Below, one piece after another: positions 1 to 351 of a stretch of DNA of 11,157 bases (positions are counted from its first letter, which is position 1; the number at the start of each line of letters is the position of its first letter). The notes beneath the pieces were generated by a model. The model had not been told where the DNA came from, ran no database searches, and saw only the letters and a program-made list of their open reading frames with translations. Origin of the DNA: a virus (Duplodnaviria > Heunggongvirae > Uroviricota > Caudoviricetes); IMG/VR virus record IMGVR_UViG_2703718825_000008; one strand, 5' to 3'. A program made the position numbers and the translations under genes.

Positions 1-277
1 CTCACGTAACGCCGCACGACGACCAGTTTTAAAGTTCGTATCCAGCTGACCGATAATGGTTGCGCTAATCGCATTAATTTCTGACGTAAACGCGTACAGC
101 GCAGGCTGATTACGCAGTACCTGTTCGATCTTCGCTTTCTAGGAAGCCTCACATTCACCATCTGCATAGGCCACCAGGTAGGCGGCGTTAATCACCACCT
201 GTGCCAGATCGCGTTTTTCAAACTTTTTAATTTCCGTTGCCGCTCTGCGGGCTTTTTTTACCAAAAATACCAAACAT
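1..277 (-). pseudogene. TerB-like (tellurite-resistance TerB family) gene, 5' part; frame runs off the left edge; apparently disrupted
   Basis: Minus-strand translation of 236..1 gives ...ATEIKKFEKRDLAQVVINAAYLVAYADGECEAS*KAKIEQVLRNQPALYAFTSEINAISATIIGQLDTNFKTGRRAALRE..., with an in-frame TAG at 141..139. The A-ADG-E pattern resembles the TerB fold from memory. The only upstream ATG (277..275) is in another frame and would join this frame if the T7 run at 253-259 were one base shorter. No start codon follows the TAG. Confidence 0.35.
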
Positions 278-351
278 CAAGGTTGATATGCGCCGGGCGT
301 GGCGCAGATACAAAAAAGGCCCGCAAAAGCGAGCCGGGAAAATAAGTGTAG

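Follow-up and report, generated by a model that had tools for sequence, protein, structure and literature searches.

The closest described relatives of the gene considered here are found in JLK-2012 and PPyecE_EH1910, in which TciA (YP_009909152) and a 'TciA/TerB-like protein', respectively, are 143 residues long and 94-97% identical to the repaired allele of the sequence that we analysed. In both, the gene is intact and is followed by tciB, which encodes a DUF3927 protein and whose start overlaps the tciA stop. In JLK-2012, tciA is located after the gene for the late antiterminator Q and a tRNA cluster and before a nanS-p/yjhS esterase gene; in PPyecE_EH1910 the downstream partner and the esterase gene are alike, and neither Q nor tRNAs are annotated within the stretch read. 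P1 tciA is more distant, with an end-to-end identity of 51%, and shares the conserved N terminus, the two ADGxxxxxE motifs, a directly adjacent tciB gene and flanking tRNA genes; P1 differs in having a third gene, tciC, and in its plasmid-prophage setting. The function of P1 tciA was named by similarity to terB alone, the gene is non-essential in P1, and in the literature on tciA and TerB in lambdoid phages we found no experimental function. Klebsiella TerB (structure 2jxu), which is encoded in the terZABCDEF operon, contains the same PF05099 domain and is a distant relative. Finally, stx2AB of Stx2a_F349 is unrelated to tciA in sequence and function; however, it occupies the same slot in the late region and is likewise followed by a nanS-p-like esterase gene and lysis genes.

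Here, we analysed a stretch of 11,157 nucleotides of viral DNA (Caudoviricetes; IMG/VR record IMGVR_UViG_2703718825_000008), which we refer to as the window. The window corresponds to a lambdoid prophage with the paa gene that is found in E. coli O26:H11 str. 11368 and its relatives. At positions 1-278 it shares 100% identity with the O26 sequence; over the entire 11 kb, two deletions and SNPs at 286 and 8401 are all that separate it from the 11368 prophage. The 5' two-thirds of a tciA/TerB-family pseudogene (codons 1-92 of 143) occupy 1..277 on the minus strand and are 100% identical to ECO26_RS30765 of strain 11368, while the 3' end lies past the left edge of the window. Taken together with the evidence below, we conclude that this feature is very probably a decayed tciA-tciB accessory cassette.

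Read directly from the sequence, the minus-strand TerB frame opens at 348, exits the window at its left edge and translates as LVFLVKKARRAATEIKKFEKRDLAQVVINAAYLVAYADGECEAS*KAKIEQVLRNQPALYAFTSEINAISATIIGQLDTNFKTGRRAALRE, continuing after the stop as KAKIEQVLRNQ...RRAALRE. The stop is an in-frame amber TAG at 141..139 (-), i.e. CTA on the plus strand. An ATG is present at 277..275 (-); it sits in the neighbouring frame and yields only MFGIFGKKSPQSGNGN*. Removal of one A from the A7 run at 253..259 (-) (T7 on the plus strand) joins the ATG frame to the TerB frame. Upstream of the TAG, the TerB frame contains no ATG but it does contain a TTG at 273..271 (-). The sequence-only reading, i.e. a reading of this DNA made without database searches, had described the amber codon, the homopolymer and an ATG offset by one base across it; on rereading the sequence, all of these were present at these positions and the offset was as described.

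The same reading had proposed that the ORF occupies the slot that carries the toxin genes in Stx-type phages, after Q and the ileZ-argN-argO tRNAs, and the gene orders in Stx2a_F349 and O26 agree with this proposal. The gene for Q (787..1476 (-); WP_001059384.1 in the PGAP annotation of the identical O26 sequence) lies upstream of the tRNAs and tciA, and beyond it, further upstream, lie RusA and then a DUF968 gene. The ileZ equivalent is a CAU tRNA at 516..591 (-), which was detected by ARAGORN and by Rfam (72.5 bits) and is annotated by PGAP as tRNA-Ile; the argO equivalent is a tRNA-Arg (UCU) at 351..425 (-), which was detected by ARAGORN and the Rfam tRNA model (68.1 bits) and aligns with argO of Stx2a_F349. 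The argN equivalent at 439..514 (-) is degenerate: ARAGORN reports it as tRNA-Lys(UUU), while the Rfam tRNA model gives no match even at E<=1 and PGAP leaves it unannotated. Compared to argN of Stx2 phages, its anticodon is changed from TCG to TTT, one nucleotide of the D-arm is deleted and there are further substitutions. Overall, the tRNA block of the window and O26 is ~94% identical to that of Stx2a_F349. In O26, the order is Q, ileZ, (argN), argO, tciA, tciB, a SASA-family esterase gene, a holin gene and a partly read YdfR-family gene; in Stx2a_F349, it is Q, ileZ, argN, argO, stx2A, stx2B and a large ORF. Thus, tciA occupies the late cargo slot of Stx phages, with the Q/tRNA cluster on one side and the nanS-p esterase and lysis genes on the other, and the cargo in the window is, unlike that of Stx2a_F349, a TerB-family pseudogene accompanied by a degenerate argN. 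The adjacency of tRNA genes and tciAB is also seen in unrelated phage backbones: in P1 (L020 115-1985), Asn, Thr and Met/Ile tRNAs flank tciABC, and in JLK-2012 (L003 2099-3093), Asn, Thr and Gly tRNAs precede tciAB; the association therefore recurs beyond the Stx-type slot.

A terminator-like hairpin, GGCTCGC-TTTT-GCGGGCC followed by TTTTTTG, is located between tRNA-Arg and tciA at 318..335 (-) and is also present in O26; it matches the consensus and would be expected to act as a terminator. A consensus scan of the stretch between Q and the tRNAs identified a promoter-like site at 803-775, followed by a strong hairpin at 697-726 (-) with a 13-bp stem and T runs on both sides, and, ahead of the tRNAs, another promoter-like site at 629-601. 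The region 697-803 (-) is likely the pR'/tR' short-transcript region. The O26 sequence identical to 697-803 gave weak, sub-threshold Rfam matches to OrzO-P, isrK and isrJ. In the tciA leader of the relatives, the consensus scan detected no promoter, which argues that the intact cassette is probably expressed by Q-antiterminated late transcription; by analogy with stx2, this would mainly involve Q-antiterminated read-through of the hairpin at 335-318.

The sequence-only reading had called the ORF TerB-like. We repaired the protein by restoring A6 and Glu46 and by borrowing the C terminus from the identical O26 locus, giving 143 aa. The repaired full-length protein matched Pfam TerB (PF05099) with 54.9 bits against a cut-off of 24.4, while the 92 residues encoded in the window alone scored 22.6 bits, slightly under this cut-off. 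Moreover, the repaired protein matched PHROG 632 "tellurite resistance" over positions 1-143 of 143 (E=1.2e-68) and the solved TerB structure 2jxu (E=5.7e-7; residues 15-137 aligned), in which the amber position pairs with Glu. In tblastn searches against phage genomes, TciA identity was 97% for JLK-2012, 94-95% for PPyecE_EH1910 and Evi, and 51% for P1. The TerB assignment was thus confirmed. DjlA had been named alongside TerB as a candidate family and was rejected: the NCBIfam DjlA model scored 30.3 bits (cut-off, 162) and covered no more than residues 87-140, and a protein of 143 aa with no J domain resembles this co-chaperone only in the shared TerB-like domain.

The window does not extend to tciB; in the identical O26 locus, where we identified this gene, its product matches PHROG 1470 (E=1.8e-29; DUF3927). 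It is the next gene in JLK-2012, PPyecE_EH1910, Evi, O26, P1, LMessi and a Salmonella jumbo phage, and it overlaps the tciA stop codon in the lambdoid copies; the short stretches read of PMBT3 and Klebsiella phage 5 LV-2017 contain no annotated gene downstream. TciA is therefore assigned to the TciA (PHROG 632)/TciB family by the full-profile match, the MFGxFxKK N terminus, which in the window copy is conserved in the ATG frame only, and the adjoining downstream tciB/DUF3927 gene. By contrast with terZABCDEF, tciA has tRNAs, Q, DUF3927 and the SASA esterase as neighbours and no other ter genes nearby, i.e. it is part of a stand-alone phage cassette with tciB. The function that would have been lost is assigned to TciA only by homology to TerB. 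Among the anti-phage defence models of PADLOC-DB, the best match to TciA was PDC-S48 (E=0.0094, 13 bits), which is not significant, and tciB gave no match. PHROG phrog_3920, a 48-residue family of 'unknown function', matches TciA residues 96-143 only and seems to have been assembled from C-terminal pieces that were predicted as genes where tciA is broken.

We aligned the window with the intact alleles of JLK-2012, PPyecE_EH1910 and Evi and of the sampled loci L013, L016 and L017. Where the window has A7 and TAG, the intact genes have GGT AAA AAA GCC (A6; confirmed in JLK-2012, L013, L016 and L017) and GAG. Because the intact homologues carry A6 and GAG at the two sites, both lesions are derived and not chance features of the sequence. 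The amber codon at 139..141 (-) replaces Glu46 in the first ADGxxxxxE motif of the TerB domain in the homologue alignment; this position is Glu in 8/8 other homologues, P1 TciA included, down to 42% identity, and is also Glu in Klebsiella TerB. Thus, the earlier statement that the TAG stands where TerB proteins usually have Glu, one substitution from GAG, was correct. Both ADGxxxxxE motifs are found in all intact homologues; in the window, a TAG takes the place of the Glu codon in motif 1, and motif 2 is downstream of the stop and outside the window. At the 5' end, intact homologues begin with MFG(I/L)F(G/K)KK at the position of the ATG at 275..277 (-), and F2, G3, K7 and K8 are invariant across nine sequences, down to 42% identity. 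Therefore, this ATG is the ancestral start, which is displaced from the TerB frame by the extra A at 253..259. The TTG at 271..273 (-) is in the TerB frame and is the start used by PGAP for A7 alleles (the CDS start maps to window position 273); the predicted product from this TTG begins MVFLVKK..., as opposed to MFGIFGKK... from the ancestral ATG. The window copy consequently has no open frame from the family start to the family stop, which is interrupted by the 1-nt insertion and by the TAG at codon 46. In total, these observations indicate that full-length TciA cannot be made from the window copy.

Compared to O26 11368, 106 bp are gone between the tciA ATG and the terminator of tRNA-Arg, with 'AA' at 279..280 in place of the tciA leader, and 204 bp are gone inside the DUF1627 gene, with 'AA' at 6144-6145. 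Strain 11368 retains both segments, and a 5' leader of the type found in JLK-2012 and PPyecE_EH1910 is thus present in the O26 relative and missing from the window. In the relatives, this leader contains a Shine-Dalgarno sequence AAAGGAAcgtcacgATG, a variable poly-G tract and an inverted repeat CCACAGAG/CTCTGTGG. The poly-G tract varies among genomes as G5TG, G6, G7, G8, G11, G13 and G14, with G13 in O26 11368 (L001 3279-3384). A leader acting as a structured RNA element was considered and rejected, as the 106 bp gave no Rfam match at E<=1 and their fold was no better than those of shuffled sequences (z=-0.91). In the O157 prophage PPompW (L019 2940-3075), ISEc20, an IS110-family element, is inserted at the poly-G tract, and tciA and the lysis region are replaced. 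If the leader deletion is true, it would be a third inactivating lesion that leaves no ribosome-binding site. However, none of 5,426 complete E. coli genomes contains either AA junction, and searches of IMG/VR, the GTDB representative genomes and the JGI metagenomes for the leader junction gave no match. Because the same AA filler is found at two unrelated sites, it is a serious possibility that the junctions are artefacts of the source assembly or of sequence processing.

Other E. coli alleles separate the effects of the two remaining lesions. An A7/GAG allele in strain Z1323CEC0011 (L015 426-854) is annotated by PGAP as an intact gene of 142 aa with a TTG start (WP_001434745.1), and this exact protein is present on 824 contigs, compared to 334 and 653 contigs for two intact A6/GAG proteins. 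Because the A7/GAG allele is annotated as intact from the TTG and is this common, A7 alone is not demonstrably inactivating and may leave the gene active via the putative TTG start. The amber codon, by contrast, is the decisive lesion. The 44-aa N-terminal fragment encoded in the window is a predicted protein on 184 contigs. The simplest series, and the likely order of decay, is A6/GAG to A7/GAG to A7/TAG. We suggest the following model. Intact tciA encodes a 143-aa TerB-domain protein and, together with the overlapping tciB (DUF3927), forms a two-gene accessory ('moron') cassette in the lambdoid late operon. Addition of one A to A6 would have put the ancestral ATG out of frame, leaving the TTG four bases downstream as the sole possible start and replacing MFGxFxKK. 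Subsequently, a G-to-T change would have converted the Glu46 codon to TAG, so that translation would end after 44-45 residues, with the first metal-binding-type ADGxxxxxE motif incomplete and the second not reached. Since the tciB GTG start overlaps the tciA stop, the stop at codon 46 would also be expected to uncouple translation of tciB. The loss of the 106-bp leader with its ribosome-binding site would be a last step specific to the window, and it is uncertain given the possible artefact.

We determined how widespread the allele is in 5,426 complete E. coli genomes. A 41-mer centred on the TAG was found in 577/5,426 genomes at 962 places, with up to five places per genome, and its hosts include O157:H7, O26, O111 and O103 strains as well as others; the same 41-mer with GAG was found in 159 of the 5,426 genomes. 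An exact 74-base stretch containing A7 was present in 554 complete-genome records, while an A6 42-mer matched 118 genomes (8 exactly and 110 with one mismatch). In O26:H11 11368, PGAP annotates ECO26_RS30765 as a 'tellurite resistance TerB family protein' pseudogene with an 'internal stop' and a TTG start, i.e. it flags the internal stop and does not count A7 as a break. We fetched nine loci with the TAG allele; as L001 and L006 represent one and the same place in O26, these are eight distinct places. Seven of the nine (six places) keep the 5' end and all of these have A7; the remaining two are 5'-truncated tciA copies directly behind another Q gene. These truncated copies, which begin with codon 24, come from O157:H7 strain 3384 and strain Z1323HEC0010 (L008 and L010, 426-788). 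They carry the same TAG, which indicates that the amber allele moved between prophage contexts. No tRNAs are annotated between Q and tciA in the truncated copies, and in Z1323HEC0010 Q itself is a partial pseudogene beside an IS3 transposase gene. The polymorphisms among the TAG copies (V/A27, Y/C36, Y/S60 and Y/H141) also occur among intact alleles and are thus more likely to have arisen by recombination between co-resident prophages than by new mutation. Finally, no sampled copy has a further interruption of the frame 3' of the TAG, which fits with a recent spread of the allele and leaves room for residual use.

The sequence-only reading had left open whether the gene is a decaying cargo gene or whether the TAG and the extra A are two sequencing errors. 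Homopolymer length errors are frequent on some sequencing platforms, and the window itself contains two odd 'AA'-filled deletions absent from the other genomes searched; accordingly, sequencing or assembly errors in a gene that is really intact were a reasonable concern. However, hundreds of genomes, produced in many laboratories and on many platforms, contain an identical TAG 41-mer, 554 records contain the exact A7 stretch, and positions 1-278 are identical to a genome in which PGAP reports the internal stop; this explanation is therefore practically negligible. Thus, decay stood and errors did not: A7/TAG is a genuine allele that is widespread in the lambdoid prophage pool of EHEC and often present in several copies per genome. 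The pseudogene is already known in the sense that RefSeq annotation flags it in hundreds of genomes.

A genuine allele could nevertheless be of use to its carrier. Slippage on A7 during transcription or translation could bring the ATG back into frame, and ribosomes that read through the amber codon could then provide a dose of TciA that is low and regulated, or the 44-aa peptide started from TTG could be functional. The open frame after the TAG in all sampled copies despite their wide spread, the presence of the allele in several sequence backgrounds and contexts, the abundance of the A7/GAG allele and the 44-aa product on 184 contigs, which is a prediction only, are in line with such recoding. 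By contrast, an A7 run is short for efficient slippage, and the shift needed is +1 or -2 and not the usual -1; the window encodes no tRNA with a CUA anticodon; the window copy is without a ribosome-binding site; the 44-aa fragment contains neither ADGxxxxxE motif complete; and the polymorphisms shared with intact alleles suggest recombination and recent spread, and not purifying selection. We therefore regard recoding or a functional peptide as very unlikely. An amber-suppressor tRNA encoded by the phage was rejected separately, as the three phage tRNAs have the anticodons UCU, UUU (the degenerate gene) and CAU. A second idea is that the A6/A7 run is a phase-variation (contingency) switch of tciAB of which the window shows the 'off' state. 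In its favour, both lengths are common in E. coli, with A7 in 554 records and A6 in no fewer than 118 genomes, and the leader of the relatives contains another homopolymer of variable length (poly-G, G5 to G14). However, in the sample, run length follows sequence lineage and not strain-level switching, with A7 in all sampled TAG alleles; runs of 6-7 bases slip rarely; A7 alleles keep a usable TTG start according to PGAP; and with the TAG downstream, a return to A6 restores no protein. A switch is, in our view, improbable to a similar degree. Finally, 577 genomes carry the TAG allele at a total of 962 places; the allele occurs on several sequence backgrounds and in several 5' contexts, and the downstream frame is open in all copies sampled. 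A7/TAG could therefore be a favoured knocked-down form that was spread by gene conversion among co-resident lambdoid prophages. If so, full-dose TciA/TciB would perhaps be harmful in lysogens, and slippage with read-through or the N-terminal peptide would provide low-level function; we give this possibility an equally low weight. That intact tciA is incompatible with EHEC hosts and that this caused the spread of the TAG was not supported: intact and broken tciA are found in the same genomes (2013C-3342 and 2015C-4944), and O145 strains carry intact copies. Altogether, decay of the tciA-tciB cassette is the reading that we favour.

Thus, the stx-equivalent slot of a non-Stx, paa-carrying prophage holds a dead tciA-tciB cassette. 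Because the lesions are real across hundreds of EHEC genomes, re-sequencing is unnecessary, and the finding has little import beyond correct annotation. The series A6/GAG, A7/GAG and A7/TAG could serve as a small marker of module exchange among EHEC prophages, and for experiments the intact TciA/TciB alleles would be of greater use.

Decay is also seen elsewhere in the prophage. It carries the adhesin gene paa (AcfC family) and, in the identical O26 annotation, a fimbrial-protein pseudogene (frameshifted and with an internal stop) and a frameshifted DUF1627 gene lie beside paa; in the window, paa, the fimbrial gene and the DUF1627 gene are at 4213-4971, 5132-5665 and 5831-about 6362, all on the minus strand. 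Together with the degenerate argN, these pseudogenes point to a wider decay of the element. Moreover, the window contains gathering-level Rfam matches to the sok antitoxin RNA (103.9 bits, beside hokD) and to DicF RNA (76.7 bits), with match coordinates 3875-4024 (-), 3722-3877 (-) and 10939-10990 (+); sok and DicF are ordinary features of Qin/Rac-type prophages.
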